Positions 1,123-16,420 of a DNA stretch of 64,000 nucleotides are shown here, one piece after another (within the stretch, counting starts at the first letter, position 1; each line of letters begins with the position of its first letter). The notes beneath the pieces were generated by a model, which saw nothing but the letters and a program-made list of their open reading frames with translations, was not told where the DNA came from and did not search any database. Source of the DNA: Tricharina praecox. Lineage: Eukaryota. Both the position numbers and the translations under genes were made by a program. The stretch is taken from assembly GCF_024521635.1 (NCBI RefSeq), contig NW_026250443.1, positions 62,001 through 126,000 on the forward strand, in the 5' to 3' direction.

Positions 1123-2004
1123 ACAGCGCAAAAATCGTCAACTGTCAATTGTCAGAACACCCTTCTCCACGCAAAGGTAGCGAGCATGTGTTGTTTTCTT
1201 TGTTTTCGTCAAGTTTGGGAACGGTGTTTTGATTTGGGTTCGGTTTAAAATAAATGGGGGGTGTCATGCGATCATGCGAGCACTTTAGTTTCTTCATTTC
1301 TGAACATAGATGGTGTATTACTTTTCGAATAGACTGTTGATCTCTTCGAATACCCTCGTAGACTGTTGGGAGATGATCTTGATGGTGATTGTACGTCTTT
1401 GTAGTGCGCGAGGGTGACTTGATCAATGGCTCCGGCAATGTAGGCAGAGATCAACCACCATAACGGATCAATTACTGGATGCCACTGGATTTATCGCCAG
1501 TCCGTCCGTCAAATGTCATGTCCACTCACTCGTGCCCAATCGCTCTGCCAAGACTGGTAACGGTCTCCGAATCTTAATTTTATTACGTAACACGACCGCA
1601 TTCTTACTGCCCAGCTGTCACTGCCAGTCAGTACTTTTTTCCATTCAAATCCAAGAACCTTCGCTTCCCAGGCTCAAGCCACACTTCCTCGCCACAATTA
1701 GTCAGGTCCATTCAGACTCTTGAGTCTTAGCGCTTATCCCACATGAGCGACTACTTTGTATAAGATACGGTAGCCGAGCTCATGATCTGACATAGGTAAA
1801 TTCGATGGTGTCAGGAGGGGTGCAACCACCACTTTAATTAACACCCCTACACGACGACGAGGCGGTCAACGACCGACCGAACGACCGACCGACCGACCGA
1901 CCGACCGCTAACCAACTGCTCCCCCGCCCCTCGCCCCCACCAACGTTCACCACGCCACCGCGCAACCCACAAAAACCCACGACTCCAGTTCACCCCACGG
2001 TGTG

Positions 2005-4570
<2,566 letters not shown>

Positions 4571-4827
4571 TATTTTATCTTATCTGGCGGGGAGATTGGG
4601 GGTGTAATATTTGCTTTGCTTTGCTTTTTTTTTTGTTGGGCTGGGCTGGAAGGGCTGGAGGGGGCAGTGCGATGAAGAGATGATCAGATGAATTTCACGT
4701 TGCGTTTTTGTTTTGTTTTGCTTGATGAAGTGTGTGTTGTTACAATTACCATTTTACTTGTATGCCACCACAGTGCCCTTGATCTCGCACCTATCCAGCA
4801 CCTATCCAGTGATACTAATACATCAAC

Positions 4828-7130
4828 TCATGACATGATCAACGACCCGCCCGCGCTCCCCACGACTTCCTCCCAACTAACCTCGCGGCCCACATACTCT
4901 CCGGCATCCATCCTCGCCCAATGCACGCGCACCGCCTCATGCGCATCAAATACATTCCCGAACCCAATGGACCTCTCCATGACCTCGAACCTGCTATCGA
5001 CGATATCTCTCTCCGCCGCGCCCAGCGCTCCAAACCCCGCCGCAAACACGGGGAAGATGAGCATACTCTCTACGAGGTCCCCAGGCGGAATCGTCTCGAG
5101 CGCGGCGAGAATATTCCGTACGGCCACCCTAACCTTGGGGTGTTTTACATCGGCGACATCGGCGGCAACCAGATGCAGCCGCATCAGCGCTGCCCACTGC
5201 AGCATTACTCCGGCGGCGGTGATCTTCCTTTCCAGGTGCGGGTCCCTCGTGACGCTGCTGCAGCGCGCGGGCGTCCACGACTGCAGCTGCAGCTCCAGTG
5301 TGCTCGCCAGCGTGTGGAAGTTCCGCGAGGTCGCGGCGCTGTGGTACCGGATGTGACGGACTTGTGCGAGTTGCGAGATGTCGGCGATTATTGCGAAGAG
5401 CAAGTGCGAAGTGCCGAATAGCGCGTGGGCTGGTAAAGACGGTGAGAGGAGGGGCGGGAGGTAGAATTGTTGGTCCAGGAACGCGGACTTGGAGGAGGAG
5501 AGGGTCGCGATTGCGTCGAAGTATGCGACGGCTTTAGGGGGTCAGTTACGGAGGGCGGGGGGCGGGGGGCGGGGGTGGCGTACTCTCGATTAAAAACCGC
5601 ACCTCGAGCGGATAACTCATCGGGCCGCCACGTTCATTAATGATCGTAACTGCAGCCTGGAGGTGCAGGGGCCACTTGCGACTCTTCCCCTCACAGACCT
5701 CCTGGAGGCAGAGGAATAGGACCGCAGCGAGACCCTCCATCGCAGCGTCCTGCGTGCCGCGCATGAGCAGCTGGTTCGCCAGCTTCAGCGCACGGTTCTG
5801 GTACTCCACCGCCGTCACCTCGAAGCTCGAGTGGATGCGCTTCAGGTGCGTCGCGGAGAGCCCGAGCAGGGCGCTGCGCATCGCCGGCTGCGCGAGCGCC
5901 ATCGGCACGAAGAGGGTGATGAACGCGTTTATCTCGTCCGGGACGACGGATAACGACCGGCTGACGACGTGTGTGTAGTGCTGGAGAAGGTGCTGCTCGT
6001 TCGACGTGCACCCGTTGTACAGGCTGAGGGGGGTCAGTTGCAGCCCCGGGCTAGAGGCGTGGTGGAGCGGCCGGCGGACGGCTGTGAGGGAGGTGCAGAC
6101 GGGTGTGCTGCTGCTGGTGGATGGGGTGCGCCGGTGCGCTGCCGACGGGCGCGGTGGCGGCGGCACCCGCTGGCACCCGAGGCCCAGACGGTTACAGTCG
6201 CCGCAGACGGGGAGGGCTTCGTCGCATTTCTTGCGTCTGGGAGGAATGGTCAGCCTCCAGTTCACCACGGCATCAGAGAGCAATACACACCTCTGCTTGC
6301 AAGTGATACACCCGGACCGGGTCCTCTGCACGCGCTTGATCCTGCACGCGGGCCTGCTGTGGTGTCTCTGCTGCCCGGCGGCGTCGGCGGCGGGGGAATC
6401 ACTCTCGCTTCCGGCACTAGACACATCCGCGGCGGAGACGACGTCGTTGTGCACCATCCCCACCACCACCGGCGGCGGGGCCACCACTTCCTGTTCCGCA
6501 GTCGCAACAGCAGCCGCAACAGCAGGCTTCTTTCGCGGCCGGCCCATGGGCTACATCTCCCCACACACAAAGGACTGCATTAGCCAAAGCTTCTTTTTTG
6601 TACACATGTATTGTGTTGGTTGGTTGGTTGGGTGCCTATGTATGATGGCATTGATGGGAATATATATCCTCCCGTCGCGCGCGCGCGGGCGGGAAGAAGC
6701 GACCGACCGACAGACCGACAGACACGTGGGGTGGTGGGGTCGGTCGGGGGATATATTTTTAAAAACTCTCCTGGGCGTCGGGCGATGTTCGGCGACGGAG
6801 GGTTTTCGCATAGACATCTCCTCTGGTGCAGTGGTGCTGGATATAAAGAAAGAAGGACTGTGGGAGAGGGTATAAAGTACCTTGTGGATCCGGGTGATTG
6901 CGCATGGTAATTCCAGTCCTTCCCGTCGCAGCACATCCATCAGCATCCACCACTCTTCGATATATCTATGGAGGATAGAGATGGTACTCACTGGCACACC
7001 GCGAACACGCGCCACCGCCGTCGACACGATCGCACACCTGCTTGATGGCGGCACAGCGATCACAGGCTTTCAGTTTCGGGGTCTGGGTCTGGGTGGTCTG
7101 GGTCTGGGTTGTGGTTGTTGTCGCCGCCAT
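4828..7130 (-). CDS. Zn(II)2Cys6 transcription factor with two binuclear clusters and a C-terminal fungal-specific TF (Fungal_trans_2-like) domain
   Basis: Exons 7130-6992, 6918-6881, 6550-6291, 6236-5584, 5531-4828. Cluster 1 CDRCAAIKQVCDRVDGGGACSRCARLELPC; cluster 2 SRSG-type [33 protein letters not shown]; C-terminal LLQHY...LLGLSATH...WPLHLQAA...LIFPVFAAG motifs. Confidence 0.85.
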
Positions 7131-7940
7131 TCTTCTTCTTCTTGCCGTCGCGAAAAAAACTAACAGATTCTTTTGGTTGTCGAAAAGTCGCCGCGAGGAG
7201 ACGAGATGAGCTGAGGTGATGCTGACCTGATTGATTGATGATCTGCCCAGTCCTGTCCTGTCCTGTCCTGTCCTGCTCTGCCAGCTGCCTGCCTGCCTGC
7301 CTGCCCGCTGCTTTTTAGAGGAAAAAGTATGTCCCGACTATGGCCCAACTCAAACTCGAACGTAACTCCCCGCGGATGTGCCGTGAAGGCCTTCTAGCTA
7401 AGTTAACTAATGGCCCACTCACTCACTCAGGGCTGGCCTGCCTGCGCGTTGCATTGGGCCATTGCTTCCCCGTAGGCAGAGTAGGGGGAGTAGGCCGTTG
7501 GGGGCCGAGGGGGGGGAAGTTTTTGCTGTTAGCGGTTAGCGCGTGGTGATAAGCTCTGCACTCGCCGGCCACGAGGGGGGGAAAGGCTCGGGGATGGCCG
7601 TGATGGTGGTGGTGGTGATGGTGTTGGGATGGAGGGCCGGTGTTCACGAAAGCCAGGACATAGGGTACTCTACCTGTGAAGGCCGGTACCGGTGCACATG
7701 AGGCCGTTTCGAAGAGTCCTCCTCGTGCACCACTCGGCCTCTCCTGCCATCTTCCCCCGATTGTCCCCCGAGTCCCGACACCTTCACCCGTCCATCTCCA
7801 TCGCCACCTTCCCTACTCTAGCCTCGCAAGCCTCGCAACAGGGCTGAACACAAGCATCCGACACATTCCAAACCCACAGTCCACTCGCCCTTAGCACTCG
7901 CCTAATCCCTCGGCAAGCCCATCCCATCCCTTCCCATCCC

Positions 7941-8038
7941 GAAAAGAAAAGAAAAGAAAAGAAAAGAAAAGAAAAGAAAAGAAAAGAAAAGAAAAGAAAA
8001 GAAAAGAAAAGAAAAGAAAAGAAAGAAAGAACAGAAAA
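7941..8038. repeat. (GAAAA)n pentanucleotide microsatellite
   Basis: About 16 perfect GAAAA units followed by degenerate units. Confidence 0.97.
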
Positions 8039-8812
8039 CGGCTTCCCTTCCCTTCCGGTTTGCAGTCTTGCTTGCCGAAACCAGAACCATAATCCGAATT
8101 CCATAAATATTACGCAATCCGCCGCGCCGGTCCCCGGCCTCCGGCCCTTCGGCGGGTTGAACAAACTTGAACTTTGAAGAGTAAGAGCATGCACGCATCG
8201 GCCCACTTTCAAAGACAAAAGTTCCCGTCGCGTCGGTCGGTGACACCCATACGGTACTCTAGGTAACCACCCCCTGGAGGTTCGGGGTGTTATGTAAGGC
8301 TGTACTCTACATGATGAACAGGTACCGCCTGCTCGGGAGTCGGTGCCGCTGTGTACATACTGGGTACATGACTAAAAGGTGTGCGCGTGGAAGTGGTAGG
8401 CGACGGTGCGGGTTCGGGTTCGGCGATTGATACCGAAGGCCGGTGGGCACTGGGTGACTGAGGAGTCAGCCGTATGGAGATACGGGGGCCGATGAGCGAG
8501 GCTGGGTGCGGTGACACGGTACTGGTAGTGTACACGGCAACTACACCATCTACATACGGCACGGATCACCCGTCAACGTCCTGACCCAAAATGTGCAACG
8601 AGCGAGTCAGCGCGACTTGCGACACGTGACATATCCCGTGCACTCTCTTGTCTGGTCTCGTCTCTCGTCTCCCGTGAACGTGAGGTGAGTATCCGTAGAG
8701 TACTAGTATAAGTGTATCCCATGCACCCATCCATCTATTATCATATCATACACTCCCCCCGCCTCCCCCCCCCATCTCCCCCACCACCCCCTTTCTCCTA
8801 ATCATCTTGAGC

Positions 8813-9529
8813 TCAATCCAATTTCTTCCCCGCCTTCCCCGCCGCCTTCCCCGCCTTCTCAAGCGTACTCCTCACCGCGCCCTTCCGTCCAATATCCCAG
8901 CCCCACCCGCGCAGGGTCTTGACAACCTTTGGCGTCACCGCGGCCGTCAGCGGCACGCGCACAAAAATGAAGCTCTTGTGTATCGCGTAGGCGAGCGCCA
9001 GCTCCGTCCAGATGCCTGCGTGGTGCACTATCATCAGCCCTTGCCCCACCCCCCTCCCCACCCCCACCAAGCATCAAGCAAAAGAAGGGAGTAACTTACT
9101 AGCCGCCCCCCTCCCCCCCTCTCCCTCTGCCTCCCTCAGTTCCTCCAGCTCCCCCTCCCCCCTCCCCTTACGCCAAACCGGCAACCCGGCCACAGGCGCA
9201 GCAACATTCCACCACCCCCTAGCGTGCGCCACAACTACCTCCTCGTACTCGCCGATGCGCTCGGAGCCGATCGTGCGCACGGCCAGGAAACAGAACGGGA
9301 AGTCCAGTGCGGAGAGTGCGAGGTATACGCCCAGGGCGGAGTAGCCGTATTCTTTCGAGAGGGACTTGAGGCGGGCGGAGAGCGTGGGTTTCGAGGCGGG
9401 TGGGGGCGGGGGTGCGCTGGGGCGGGGGGTGGTGTGCGAGAAGGGGCGGCGAGGGGTGGTGATGGGGCGCCGTGGTGTAAGTATGTGCGCTGTGCGGAAT
9501 AGAGGCCGCGGGAAGAGGCGGGCAGACAT
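8813..9529 (-). CDS. NAT2: NAT2/FAM210-like (DUF1279) mitochondrial membrane protein
   Basis: Arg-rich presequence; RLKSLSKEYGYSALGVYLALSALDFPFCFLAVR and SIWTELALAYAIHKSFIFVRVPLTAAVTPKVV joined by intron 9016-9099. Confidence 0.88.
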
Positions 9530-10400
9530 TGCGGCGGGGTGTGGTCTGCGGTGCTGGGTGAGCTTGCGGGCGGTGGGCGGTGAGCAGTGGGGTCGCGGAG
9601 AAGGACGGGACGGGCCGGGGGTGCCGGGTGCGTGGTGCGTGGTGCCGGGTAAACGGTGGTGGTGATGGTGATGGTGATGGTGATTCGGCGGTGCGGGATG
9701 CTGCTGCTGATGATGATGACGGGGATGATGTGAGGTGGTGGATGGTGATGGAGTTATACATAAGTACCTACGGTGCTCGGGTACCTCCGGTGGCGCGTGT
9801 CAGCCGTTGGGATGGGTACTAGTTACTCTAGATGTTGGGAATTTGGGATAGGTAGATGTTGAGTAAACACCTGGCAGCAACTGCTCGCATACGTACCGAA
9901 CCTAGATGGTATCTATGAGGTAGTTGTGGCTGCTGCTGCGCCCCCGCACGCTGGCCGCACTTTTGGGCAACTAGTAGCCAGCTCAAGCGGCAATCTCCAG
10001 CGAGTCTGCGATATTTGCCCCTCCAGTCTCGACTCCCACTCCCAGTCTCGACTCCCACTCCCAGTCCCGGGCGGACACGAAGAAATACCGGTACCGGCGC
10101 CGGAAAAAACTCGGGTGCGGCTCCGCTCACGTTACTCGCACTAATCAGTACAACACCACCACGCCCCGCCTACGTCAGCAGAACCTCACCCACCGTCCAC
10201 CGTCCACCGTCCACCGTCCACCGTCCACGCCCAACAAACAGCAACAGCAGACGAAACAACACACTGCCCCTACGACCACGACCACGACCAGCACCAGCAC
10301 TAGCACCACCAGCAGCAGCACCAGCAGCATATCTCTCCCACGCACACACGCACAACCATCCGCCAGCCCTTCCGCCGCCGCCGCAGCCGCCGCAACCCCA

Positions 10401-11152
10401 ATGCCCTCCAAAAACATCATCGGCACGCCTCTGAAAAAGCTCTGGTACACATGGCGGTCCCACCGGTTCCCATGGCGGAAGACCTACTTCATCGGTCTGC
10501 TCTCTCCCTCTTCCCCTGCTCCCTCCCCCCCCTCCCCTCTTCCCCGCTAACCCCCTCCCTAGGAATGGACCTCAGCGGCAACACATTCTGGGAATACCGC
10601 GACCGGCTAGCCGCGCACCGTCCGCGTCGGAGCGTAACCTTCTCCGACCCCAATCTCGACTGGGTAGACTACGCCTCTGCCGTCTCTCCAGCATGGCACC
10701 AATGGCTTCGGGCGACGCGGGTATCCGCGCCCACAATCGAGGAGCAGCGCGAGGATACGCGGCGCCAGGAGGTGCTGGCGGTTAATGCGGCCCGCGCCGA
10801 TGCACGCTGGGAGGCAATGCCGAGTCTGGTTAATGCCCCGCCGCATCCGCCGAGGGACTCTGTCATTGAGAGTAATACTAAGTTTGCGAATGATTCGGGG
10901 TTGCAGAGGCCTGGGGGTGGGGGTGGCGGGCAGGGCGTGGGGAGGGGGGAGGTCGGCGCGGAGGTGGGAGGGAAGGATATCGAGGGACACAGGGAGGCGG
11001 GGGAAAAGGCAAGTAGCCCGCATGGGTTGAGGGGAGATAAGGATCCGTGGGCGGAGGCGGAGATCGGCAGGGCTAGGGGGTTTAAGCAGGGCGAGTGGGA
11101 TCCGAATGCCAATCTACCCCGCGTTAGGAGTCGCGGGAGGAGTGATAGGTAG
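10401..11152 (+). CDS. NDUFA12-family protein, probably the complex I assembly factor (NDUFAF2-like paralogue)
   Basis: ATG 10401, intron 10495-10562; spliced WYTWRSHRFPWRKTYFIGMDLSGNTFWEY...RPRRSV...VSPAWHQWLRATRVSAPTIEEQ. Confidence 0.85.
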
Positions 11153-14717: not shown

Positions 14718-16420
14718 ATGCCGCAACCCGCGCCGCAACCCGCGCCCGCGCCCACGCCCGTGCCAATGGCCGTACCAATGGCACCACCCGCCGACGCCGA
14801 CGCCGACGACGAGAAGGCCGACTCCCCCTCGAGCTCGATGTCGCGCCGATCATCGCGCCGATCAACCCGATCATCACGGGAATCGCGAGAAGACGAGGTT
14901 CGAGAAGTGGAGGTGGTGGAGGTGGTAGACATGGGCCTGCAATTGACGTGCAGTCTCCGCAGCGGCGTTGGGCCGCGAGAGCTCGAGCTCGAGAAGCCGC
15001 CGGATGGTGGGGCGAGGGCGTGGTTGTGCGGTATGTCCACTGTGGCGTCGCACGGGGGAGGTGGGGGGGTGGTGGCTGACGGAAGGGGATGGGGTGCATG
15101 TAGTGCTCGGGGTTCATCTAACGGTGTTTACCACTTGGGGGTTTATCAATGTTTGTTTCCAAGGAAAAATATTCAGGGAGTGGATGGGTGGGTGAATGGG
15201 TGGATGGGTGTTGACTGTCCGTCCGCAGAGCTTCGGCGTATTCCAAGCGTACTACGCGACGACTCTGGCGGCCTCACCCTCGACAATCAGCTGGATCGGC
15301 AGCATCCAGATCTTCCTGCTGTTCACGCTGGGGACATTTACCGGGCGGGCGCTGGACGCCGGGTACTTCTTCGCGGTGTACCGTCTCGGGAGCGTCCTCG
15401 TGCTCCTCGGGATCTTCACGACGTCGATCAGCGGCGGAAGTTTCGCACGCATCTTCCTGTCGCAGGGGCTATGCTGCGGGCTCGGCAGCGGCCTGATCTT
15501 CTGTCCCGCGCTCGCGCTGAGCTCGACGTACTTCCGCCGGCGACGGAGTCTGGCGCTGGGGATTGGCGCGAGCGGCAGTGCGACGGGTGGAATCGTTATC
15601 CCGCTCGTTGTCCAGACCCTGCTCCCAAGGATCGGCTTCGCCTGGACCGTTAGGTGTCTCGGCTTGATCTGTACCGTCGCGCTGCTGGTCGCCAATGTCG
15701 TCCTGAAACCCCGTCTGAAGCCAAGGAAGGTCGGCAGTCTCGTCGAGTGGAAGGCGTTTCGCGAGCCCACGTACGTGCTGTTCGCAATCGGTATATACCC
15801 TTCCCCTCACCCCCGCCTCCCCCGCCTCCCCCGCCGTCCCACTAACACCCACCTCACCCGCAGGCATGTTCCTCTCCTTCACGGGCGTATACTTCGCATT
15901 CTTCTACGCCTCCTCCTTCGCGCGCTCGATCCTGTCACTATCGATCCCCTCCTCCTTCACAACGCTAATAATAATGAACGCGGTCGGCCTCCCAGGCCGT
16001 ATCTTACCAAACTACCTAGCAGACCGACGCCTTGGCCCCCTAAACCTTCTGATCCCTATCACGTTAACCGTCTCCCTCCTCCTCTTCGTCTGGCCTGCCG
16101 TCATGAGCCAAACGGGACTGTACATATGGGCCGGCGCCTATGGCGTTGCCGCTGCGGGGATACAGAGCCTGTTTCCTGCTACGCTGAGTAGTCTTACTAC
16201 CGACCTGGAGCGCGCAGGCACGAGGATGGGAATGGTTTTCACTATTGTGTCGTTCGCGTGCTTGACCGGGACGCCGGTCGGCGGCGCGCTGGTGCAGGCC
16301 GCGGGGGGAGAGTATTGGGCTGGACAGGTCTTTGCGGGCACGTGTGTTCTCCTTGGTGGGCTGGTGCTCGCCGCGGCGAGGGTCGCGAAGACGGGGTGGA
16401 AGTGGAGGGTTAAGGCATAA
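14718..16420 (+). CDS. MFS monocarboxylate-porter family transporter (MCH4/MCH5-like)
   Basis: PPDGGARAWL, TWGFINSFGVFQAYY, ISWIGSIQIFL, YFRRRRSLALGIGASGSATGG, GTRMGMVF; introns 15031-15103, 15151-15228, 15791-15863. Confidence 0.93.

Follow-up and report, generated by a model that had tools for sequence, protein, structure and literature searches.

Textbook zinc-cluster transcription factors of the Gal4 type carry one Zn(II)2Cys6 cluster per chain and pair through a coiled coil. Described proteins depart from this plan in two directions. Pho7 and AlcR act as monomers and AflR as two monomers whose disordered tail is essential, all of them without a coiled coil (PMC6265462, PMC12501005). Two clusters in a single chain have been described for Bhr1 of Dichomitus squalens, a proven activator (PMC13532241), for PoZCP55 of Pleurotus ostreatus (PMC7295025) and, in a passing mention in 2019, for two DUF3468/PF11951 proteins, CCG_02279 of Tolypocladium guangdongense and CCM_00582 of Cordyceps militaris (PMC6471507). 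The present study concerns a minus-strand gene at 7130..4828 of a 64,000-nucleotide stretch of Tricharina praecox DNA (assembly GCF_024521635.1, contig NW_026250443.1, positions 62,001 to 126,000; hereafter the window, in whose coordinates positions are given), which had been predicted from the sequence alone to encode a factor with two complete clusters, the first hidden in small upstream exons. Our reading is that this is a real five-exon gene for a 597-residue two-cluster Gal4-type factor, in which both clusters would be DNA-binding modules and a single chain would read a bipartite site; we put the probability of this reading as a whole at about 0.8. The exon structure, the splicing, the two-cluster architecture, its conservation and the confinement of two-cluster proteins to a single clade are documented in the sections that follow.

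The same combination of both clusters, a KPMGRP[RK]K tail, long disordered linkers and PF11951 is found in a protein of Pyronema omphalodes CBS 100304 (P0170) and its orthologues in Trichophaea hybrida, Geopyxis carbonaria, Rhizina undulata, Dactylellina haptotyla and Dactylella cylindrospora. Relative to this group, the T. praecox protein has a cluster 1 loop one residue longer and differs in its N-terminus and linker. P0170 (577 aa) is identical at 404 of 597 residues (68%), end to end and colinear through both clusters; the name it carries, 'Similar to Transcriptional activator protein UGA3', is an automatic label. CCG_02279 and CCM_00582 likewise have two N-terminal clusters before PF11951, with cluster 2 spaced C-2-C-6-C-6-C-2-C-6-C (PMC6471507). 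Known to us from that description, these two proteins have spacings that match the Eurotiomycete and Sordariomycete members of the clade containing the T. praecox protein. This second type differs in its cluster 1 loop of 5 residues (8 here), its inter-cluster linker of 23-45 residues (54-99 in the orthologue group), the GRP tail, which is mostly absent, and an identity of only ~30%.

As far as their descriptions extend, Bhr1 and PoZCP55 are basidiomycete proteins that combine septin-like NTPase domains with clusters close to the C-terminus and lack PF11951 (PMC13532241, PMC7295025), and no homology with them is implied; in the T. praecox gene the clusters are N-terminal and no piece of it matches the septin profile (PF00735). 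Pho7, AlcR and AflR, as described, also have no helical dimerisation element by the cluster, but they hold one cluster per chain, whereas here a second is tethered in cis. Cluster 1 of the T. praecox protein is followed by a basic, disordered tail, a likeness to AflR-type factors; we take it to resemble AflR's own tail. We found no functional study of the two-cluster PF11951 subfamily in the full-text literature, from whose coverage subscription journals are mostly absent. The layout itself is already known from NCBI orthologues and is shared by relatives among many moulds and cup fungi, and what is new is this member, which taken singly is a sound annotation and not a discovery. Its interest is that of a clean example, with a splice pattern backed by transcript contigs and close relatives that include the laboratory fungus Pyronema, of an old subfamily across filamentous ascomycetes that has two unlike clusters in one chain and no coiled coil, in contrast to the textbook plan.

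Gene structure and transcript evidence

The five exons, joined by script, give a coding sequence of 1794 nt and a protein of 597 aa, and all four introns (6991-6919, 6880-6551, 6290-6237 and 5583-5532) are of the GT..AG type; every feature of the gene lies on the minus strand. The stop-to-stop frame 7337..6966 has no in-frame ATG besides ATG 7130. The leader 7237-7130 contains no other ATG, making ATG 7130 the first in 107 transcript-covered upstream bases, and the 5' untranslated region extends at least over 7131..7237, the limit reached by a spliced contig of two sequencing runs, X1 and X2. Exon 1 (6992..7130, 139 nt) holds the start codon, a Thr/Gln-rich N-terminus and Cys1-Cys5 of cluster 1, as judged from the sequence, a partial Zn_clus match and a spliced contig. 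Intron 1 (6919..6991, 73 nt, GTGAGT..AG, with a CTGAT branch-like site) interrupts an Arg codon of cluster 1 in phase 1 and is skipped by one contig each in X1 and X2. Exon 2 (6881..6918, 38 nt), defined by sequence and contigs, adds Cys6 of cluster 1 and the start of the linker. Intron 2 (6551..6880, 330 nt, GTACTT..TAG, with a CTAAT branch-like site) is partly spliced and partly retained in the contigs of both runs.

Exon 3 (6291..6550), which starts in phase 0 and is recognised from the sequence and from orthologue conservation, encodes the basic PMGRPRKK tail, a low-complexity linker and Cys1-Cys2 of cluster 2. It is followed by intron 3 (6237..6290, 54 nt, phase 2), which lies inside cluster 2 and is skipped in a long contig of both runs. 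Exon 4 (5584..6236), also covered by contigs, encodes the remainder of cluster 2 (Cys167 at 6175-6173), a Pro/Ser-rich linker and the first half of the PF11951 (Fungal_trans_2) domain. Intron 4 (5532..5583, 52 nt, phase 1) is absent from the long contig, which covers 4500-5531 and then 5584-6236 unbroken, and exon 5 (4828..5531) encodes the second PF11951 half and ends in the stop codon TGA 4830-4828. The open reading frames (ORFs) of these last two exons match Fungal_trans_2 at 91.1 bits (profile 1-137) and 102.6 bits (149-375), respectively.

Two stretches of the spliced protein have the six-Cys spacing of Zn(II)2Cys6 clusters, for which we used the pattern C-2-C-6-C-(5-12)-C-2-C-(6-8)-C (PF00172). 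Cluster 1 (residues 23-52; coding span 6902..7064, from regex and alignment) reads C-2-C-6-C-8-C-2-C-6-C, with intron 1 between its fifth and sixth Cys. Cluster 2 (residues 140-167; coding span 6173..6310, from sequence and alignment, interrupted by intron 3) reads C-2-C-6-C-6-C-2-C-6-C, and the loops are thus of 8 and 6 residues. The basic KPMGRPRKK stretch that follows cluster 1 spans the exon 2/3 junction, and ATG 6547 is the conserved Met inside this tail in exon 3. The original prediction proved exact in all of its coordinates, namely a 139-nt exon 1, an intron at 6919-6991, a 38-nt exon and a 330-nt intron at 6551-6880, spliced in frame. It had placed the second cluster about 80 aa downstream of the first; cluster 2 begins 87 residues past the end of cluster 1 and is complete, although itself split by the 54-nt intron.

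Transcript evidence was drawn from X1 and X2, runs of two studies in which 85% of the words sampled from 4700-7400 occur. The label 'RNA?' that these runs carry is a guess of the index; the contigs are unstranded, rare variants are dropped, depths are rough and starts are not visible. Contigs of both runs skip all four introns at the modelled places with zero mismatches, and the listed joints carry CT..AC ends on the plus strand, equivalent to GT..AG on the strand of the gene. Positions 6917/6991 are joined by a contig with 37 and 247 letters per side (X1, X2), and 6236/6291 and 5531/5584 are both joined within one contig of >4 kb. A 58-nt contig with 28 and 30 letters per side joins 6550/6881 in both runs. 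This contig falls below the rule of 31 letters per side by which a junction was called bridging, yet it has the length required of a bubble in a k=31 assembly, and the other arm of the bubble, a 388-nt contig (6523-6910) retaining intron 2, is also present in both runs. The junctions 6992/6918 and 6881/6550, at which the prediction was open to a check in transcript-type data, are accordingly both spliced in contigs of two runs, the exon 2-3 contig being the short one (58 nt). No run recorded as RNA contained the stretch. Three soil metatranscriptome runs of one study have almost none of its words, and the two of them that were compared with the window (X3 and X4) gave no contig. Upstream of the leader, 7238-7314 was skipped as a repeat in contig placement and the bins 7282-7700 have no cover in X1 or X2, which is not evidence of absence.

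Among the X1 and X2 contigs we found no unspliced form of introns 1, 3 or 4, so that the 388-nt arm seems to reflect retention specific to intron 2 and not carry-over of DNA. In a message that keeps intron 2, the reading frame opened by ATG 7130 runs for 168 residues up to TAG 6553-6551, and retention could therefore yield transcripts able to encode only a 168-residue cluster-1 protein. Such retention may be regulation or splicing noise. The TAG of the retained frame stands 3 nt before the conserved ATG 6547. A TATA-like run at 6660-6666 on the minus strand lies inside intron 2, ~115 nt upstream of ATG 6547 with several ATGs between, and might serve as a promoter within the gene from which a product with cluster 2 only is made. 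Comparison of 6400-7400 with Rfam gave no match at E<=1, so there was no sign of an intron-hosted RNA.

Conservation and spread of the two-cluster architecture

An exhaustive phmmer search of 1.84 billion representatives returned 542 matches at E<=0.001, of which no more than 10 reached E<=1e-30. The orthologue group is thus small and limited to Pezizomycetes and Orbiliomycetes, with nematode-trapping fungi among the latter. Searches with the gene's own frame returned no protein identical to the T. praecox gene product. When longer proteins were searched with the exon 3-4 frame, six were obtained (>585 aa), all of them with both clusters and colinear through both junctions. Thirteen database proteins are colinear through the two junctions (..C-S/T-R-C-x-R-L..C..KPMGRP[RK]K..), and because they reproduce the sequence across both, the splicing of exons 1 and 2 into this frame is not a matter of chance.

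Conservation was assessed in an alignment of 19 family members with ~30-68% identity. In cluster 1 the six Cys are invariant (19/19), and so is the Lys that stands four residues past Cys2; cluster 2 has five invariant Cys, with the sixth present in at least 90% of the members. The signature Ala-x-Ile-Lys that follows Cys2 of cluster 1 has an invariant Ala and Lys in the 19 members, and its Ile occurs in 33 of 35 two-cluster sequences; Arg-Cys-x-Arg-Leu (Cys4-Cys5) of cluster 1 and Lys-Cys-Asp-Glu of cluster 2 are also invariant in the alignment. Across the 35 two-cluster sequences, the fourth residue after Cys2 is Lys in every case in cluster 1, and in cluster 2 it is Arg (23), Lys (10) or His (2). 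We take this residue to occupy the position of Lys18 in Gal4. Gal4 Lys18 has been described as the sole Gal4 side chain that contacts bases (PMC6265462). The linker between the clusters ranges from 23 to 99 residues in the 35 sequences (median 33) and from 54 to 99 in the orthologue group. A GRP-containing tail is present in 10 of the 35; the orthologue group has it, and it is conserved in every Pezizomycete and Orbiliomycete orthologue that reaches that far.

The original prediction also held that this architecture would escape any gene caller that took ATG 6547 as the start, and public annotation bears this out in relatives. Cluster 1 is missing from four of the 10 named NCBI orthologue models: that of Ascodesmis starts exactly at the KPMGRPRK Met (equivalent to ATG 6547), that of Drechslerella a few residues earlier, and those of Wilcoxina and D. 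cionopaga are cut further in. The other six (Pyronema, Trichophaea, Geopyxis, Rhizina, Dactylellina haptotyla and Dactylella cylindrospora) carry both clusters, and the layout, though often overlooked, is to that extent not hidden from public annotation. In the entries P0173, P0008, P0176 and P0175, the sequence begins exactly at the conserved KPMGRPRK Met in three relatives and a few residues before it in one. P0176, a 540-aa ORF on a 2136-nt contig from an Orbiliomycete-like relative, may stem from retention of that same intron or from an alternative start. A comparable annotation trap has been described for PloA/AN3969 of Aspergillus nidulans, whose Zn2Cys6 cluster is encoded by small 5' exons that had gone unannotated until cDNA was sequenced; unlike the present protein, PloA as described there has one cluster and a regulatory domain of another family (PMC5988728). 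Since cluster 1 is encoded in tiny 5' exons and is absent from many public models, counts of the architecture are underestimates, and gene models that start at the conserved 'MGRPRK' merit checking.

The six-Cys pattern occurs twice in 27 of 154 database proteins. Restricting the set to full-length-like proteins (starting with M and at least 450 aa long; n=79) left 17 with two clusters, 42 with one and 20 with none. The named two-cluster members, all of them uncharacterised, belong to Aspergillus ochraceoroseus, A. cavernicola, Penicillium canescens, P. arizonense, Stachybotrys elegans, Pestalotiopsis fici, a Xylariales species, Thyridium curvatum and Rhizina undulata. A quick LG+G4 tree was built from the 79 proteins and the T. 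praecox model after the sequence preceding the last cluster had been cut off, which kept cluster 1 from shaping the result. All 18 two-cluster rows (the 17 proteins and the T. praecox model) fall in one clade of 34 rows, with a Shimodaira-Hasegawa-like approximate likelihood ratio test (SH-aLRT) value of 97, and the remaining 46 rows include no two-cluster protein. The clade spans Pezizomycetes, Orbiliomycetes, Eurotiomycetes and Sordariomycetes.

Intron positions are shared across this breadth. Metagenome contigs scanned with the Penicillium canescens member yielded 38 loci, and in three of them (L001, L002 and L007) tblastn showed the N-terminal coding sequence to be broken at the same places. 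The Penicillium-like locus L002 was read base by base. Its cluster 1 has a phase 1 intron in the Arg codon of C-x-R-C-x-R|L, which is the position of intron 1 of the T. praecox gene, and its cluster 2 has a phase 2 intron in the Arg codon three residues after Cys2, which is that of intron 3. L002 has one extra intron in cluster 1, at 1174-1222 of the locus, in phase 0 between Cys2 and Cys3, and it has no counterpart of the 330-nt intron. With cluster 1 spread over three exons of ~45 nt each, the L002 version would be even easier for gene callers to miss. The tree and the shared intron positions together point to one old origin of the two-cluster gene, and the T. praecox gene belongs to an old Pezizomycotina-wide subfamily that has kept both clusters. 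Cluster 1 may have arisen by internal duplication or by capture; a word-indexed search with residues 21-72 of P0001 gave five candidates for its source, all of them orthologues.

Proposed mode of DNA recognition and competing explanations

Structural inferences were drawn from an AlphaFold model of the orthologue P0170, built on the 19-member alignment with a mean predicted local distance difference test score (pLDDT) of 76. The model contains two small folded modules, with helices at residues 11-15 and 29-33 (block pLDDT 79-86) and at 116-120 and 133-138 (71-81), respectively, each module consisting of two short helices at the Cys pairs, which is the Zn2Cys6 cluster fold. Residues 46-111 and 149-194 have pLDDT values under 50, and the linkers of the T. 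praecox protein are rich in Pro, Ala and Ser. No helix adjoins either cluster in the P0170 model, that is, a coiled coil of the classical Gal4/Ppr1/Put3 type is absent from it. The C-terminal domain is modelled confidently as all-helical. A Foldseek search of this domain against the PDB gave nothing at E<=0.001, and its weak resemblances are to the ligand-binding domain of Upc2 (7vpr, 7vpu, 4n9n) and to Cep3 (2veq), at 8-16% identity.

We propose that the chain is laid out as cluster 1, a short basic tail, a disordered linker of ~87 residues, cluster 2, a second disordered linker and an all-helical PF11951 regulatory domain. Cluster 2 would be the canonical DNA-binding module of PF11951 factors, and cluster 1, with its invariant Lys and basic tail, would provide a second DNA contact of different specificity. 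One protein would then read a bipartite site whose spacing is set by the flexible linker and not by a coiled coil; since the two modules would differ in specificity, a single chain could hold two half-sites without such an element. The absence of a coiled coil after either cluster in the model fits a monomer reading a composite site. The faint C-terminal likeness to Upc2 and Cep3, whose domains are dimers, speaks weakly against a monomer, and the whole protein may dimerise through its C-terminal domain. A two-copy complex prediction for P0170 residues 195-577 scored 0.00 against a mark of 0.32, which is evidence neither way. A bolder version, in which the protein is an 'intramolecular dimer' on an asymmetric bipartite site and regulated retention of intron 2 switches production between this form and a 168-residue cluster-1-only product in competition for one half-site, we regard as a long shot. 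If true, it would give zinc-cluster factors a way of recognising DNA and of regulating themselves that has not been described for them.

A number of observations count against a two-module factor made from a five-exon message. DNA binding by both clusters is something that we infer. At the Pfam gathering cut-off of 21 bits, which applies to PF00172 and PF11951 alike, the unspliced pieces of the gene fall short as Zn_clus matches, with 14.1 bits for exon 1 (five Cys, profile positions 1-25 of 39) and 20.2 bits for cluster 2 read through its intron; sub-threshold scores on unspliced pieces are what an interrupted gene should give, and the orthologues as whole proteins score 35.9-41.7 bits. Two PF00172 matches together with PF11951 had been expected, and this holds for three of six orthologues, the other three showing a single Zn_clus stretch at E<=0.01. 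Cluster 1 of P0170 taken alone (the N-terminal 60 residues) reaches 21.9 bits against the cut-off of 21, and the best solved relative of cluster 1 is Ppr1 at an E-value of 0.098. The 6550/6881 junction rests on the 58-nt contigs with their 28 and 30 letters, from runs guessed to be RNA. The depth of unspliced versus spliced intron 2 is 428 versus 130 in X1 and 278 versus 238 in X2, and the full-length message may be a minority of transcripts. Finally, the clade defined above also includes 16 rows with one or no cluster; at least seven of these are visibly truncated models (four start within cluster 2 and three retain no more of cluster 1 than its final residues), and real cluster losses may be present among the 16.

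The main rival explanation is that cluster 2 alone binds DNA and that cluster 1 with its tail is a zinc-stabilised module with another task, for instance in nuclear import, in binding a partner or in autoinhibition, which we consider possible but rather unlikely. Cluster 2 is of the sequence type that stands N-terminally in single-cluster PF11951 relatives, cluster 1 matches PF00172 poorly, and the basic tail after it could be a nuclear localisation signal. However, a structural zinc knuckle has no obvious need for the Lys that cluster 1 keeps in 35 of 35 sequences, presumably at the Gal4 Lys18 position, or for the conserved Ala-x-Ile-Lys and Arg-Cys-x-Arg-Leu. In AflR, moreover, DNA binding depends on a disordered tail that follows the cluster (PMC12501005). 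Alternatively, the locus could work mainly through isoforms, either the 168-residue cluster-1 protein or a cluster-2-only protein begun at ATG 6547, arising from retention of intron 2 or from a start within it, with the two-cluster chain as a minor product. Such a scheme would account for a retained-intron contig that occurs in both runs at a depth at least equal to that of the spliced form, when the other three introns have no retained form; it would also suit the 3-nt interval between the end of the retained frame and ATG 6547, the TATA-like run within the intron and the relative's 540-aa ORF that begins at the same conserved Met. We judge it improbable, however. The Met lies in a motif that is conserved in every orthologue along with the residues preceding it, which implies selection across the junction and hence on the joined protein; contigs cannot show starts, strand or reliable levels, several ATGs in the intron precede 6547, and the retention may be plain pre-mRNA or noise.

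Scarcely credible, by comparison, is the idea that exons 1 and 2 match by accident, survive as pseudo-exon relics or come from a different transcript upstream, with ATG 6547 as the true start of the protein. Some public orthologue models do start at the equivalent of this codon, and the contig across 6550/6881 is short, but this explanation is contradicted by spliced contigs in two studies, by the 13 colinear proteins, by the invariant Cys of cluster 1 and by an intron position held in common with a distant relative. The two-cluster factor encoded by five exons is the reading that we retain.

Neighbouring genes and additional features

The T. praecox gene converges with a plus-strand gene at 1912-4570 that encodes a SNF1/AMPK-type kinase, with matches to Pkinase and AdenylateSensor. 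The long X1 and X2 contigs extend at least 2.2 kb below 4500, from which we conclude that the 3' ends of the regulator and the kinase are merged in these unstranded contigs. On the other side lie a FAM210-like ORF (9074-9799, minus strand), an NDUFA12-like ORF (10304-11152, plus strand) and an ORF for a major facilitator superfamily (MFS) transporter (15196-16420, plus strand). We considered a role as regulator of a biosynthetic cluster and rejected it, as the neighbours (SNF1-type kinase, FAM210-like, NDUFA12-like and MFS) are of housekeeping character.

Short tandem repeats, with units such as caggacagga and ggcaggca, occur at 7238-7314, just upstream of the covered leader, and a longer run of an A/G-rich unit further up, at ~7900-8100, reads as KEKKR repeats in one frame. 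Among the database proteins, two entries are probable fused gene models: a 1337-aa 'beta-glucosidase H' of Thyridium curvatum (P0169) that contains a two-cluster factor, and a 687-aa protein (P0033) with a short-chain-dehydrogenase-like N-terminus.

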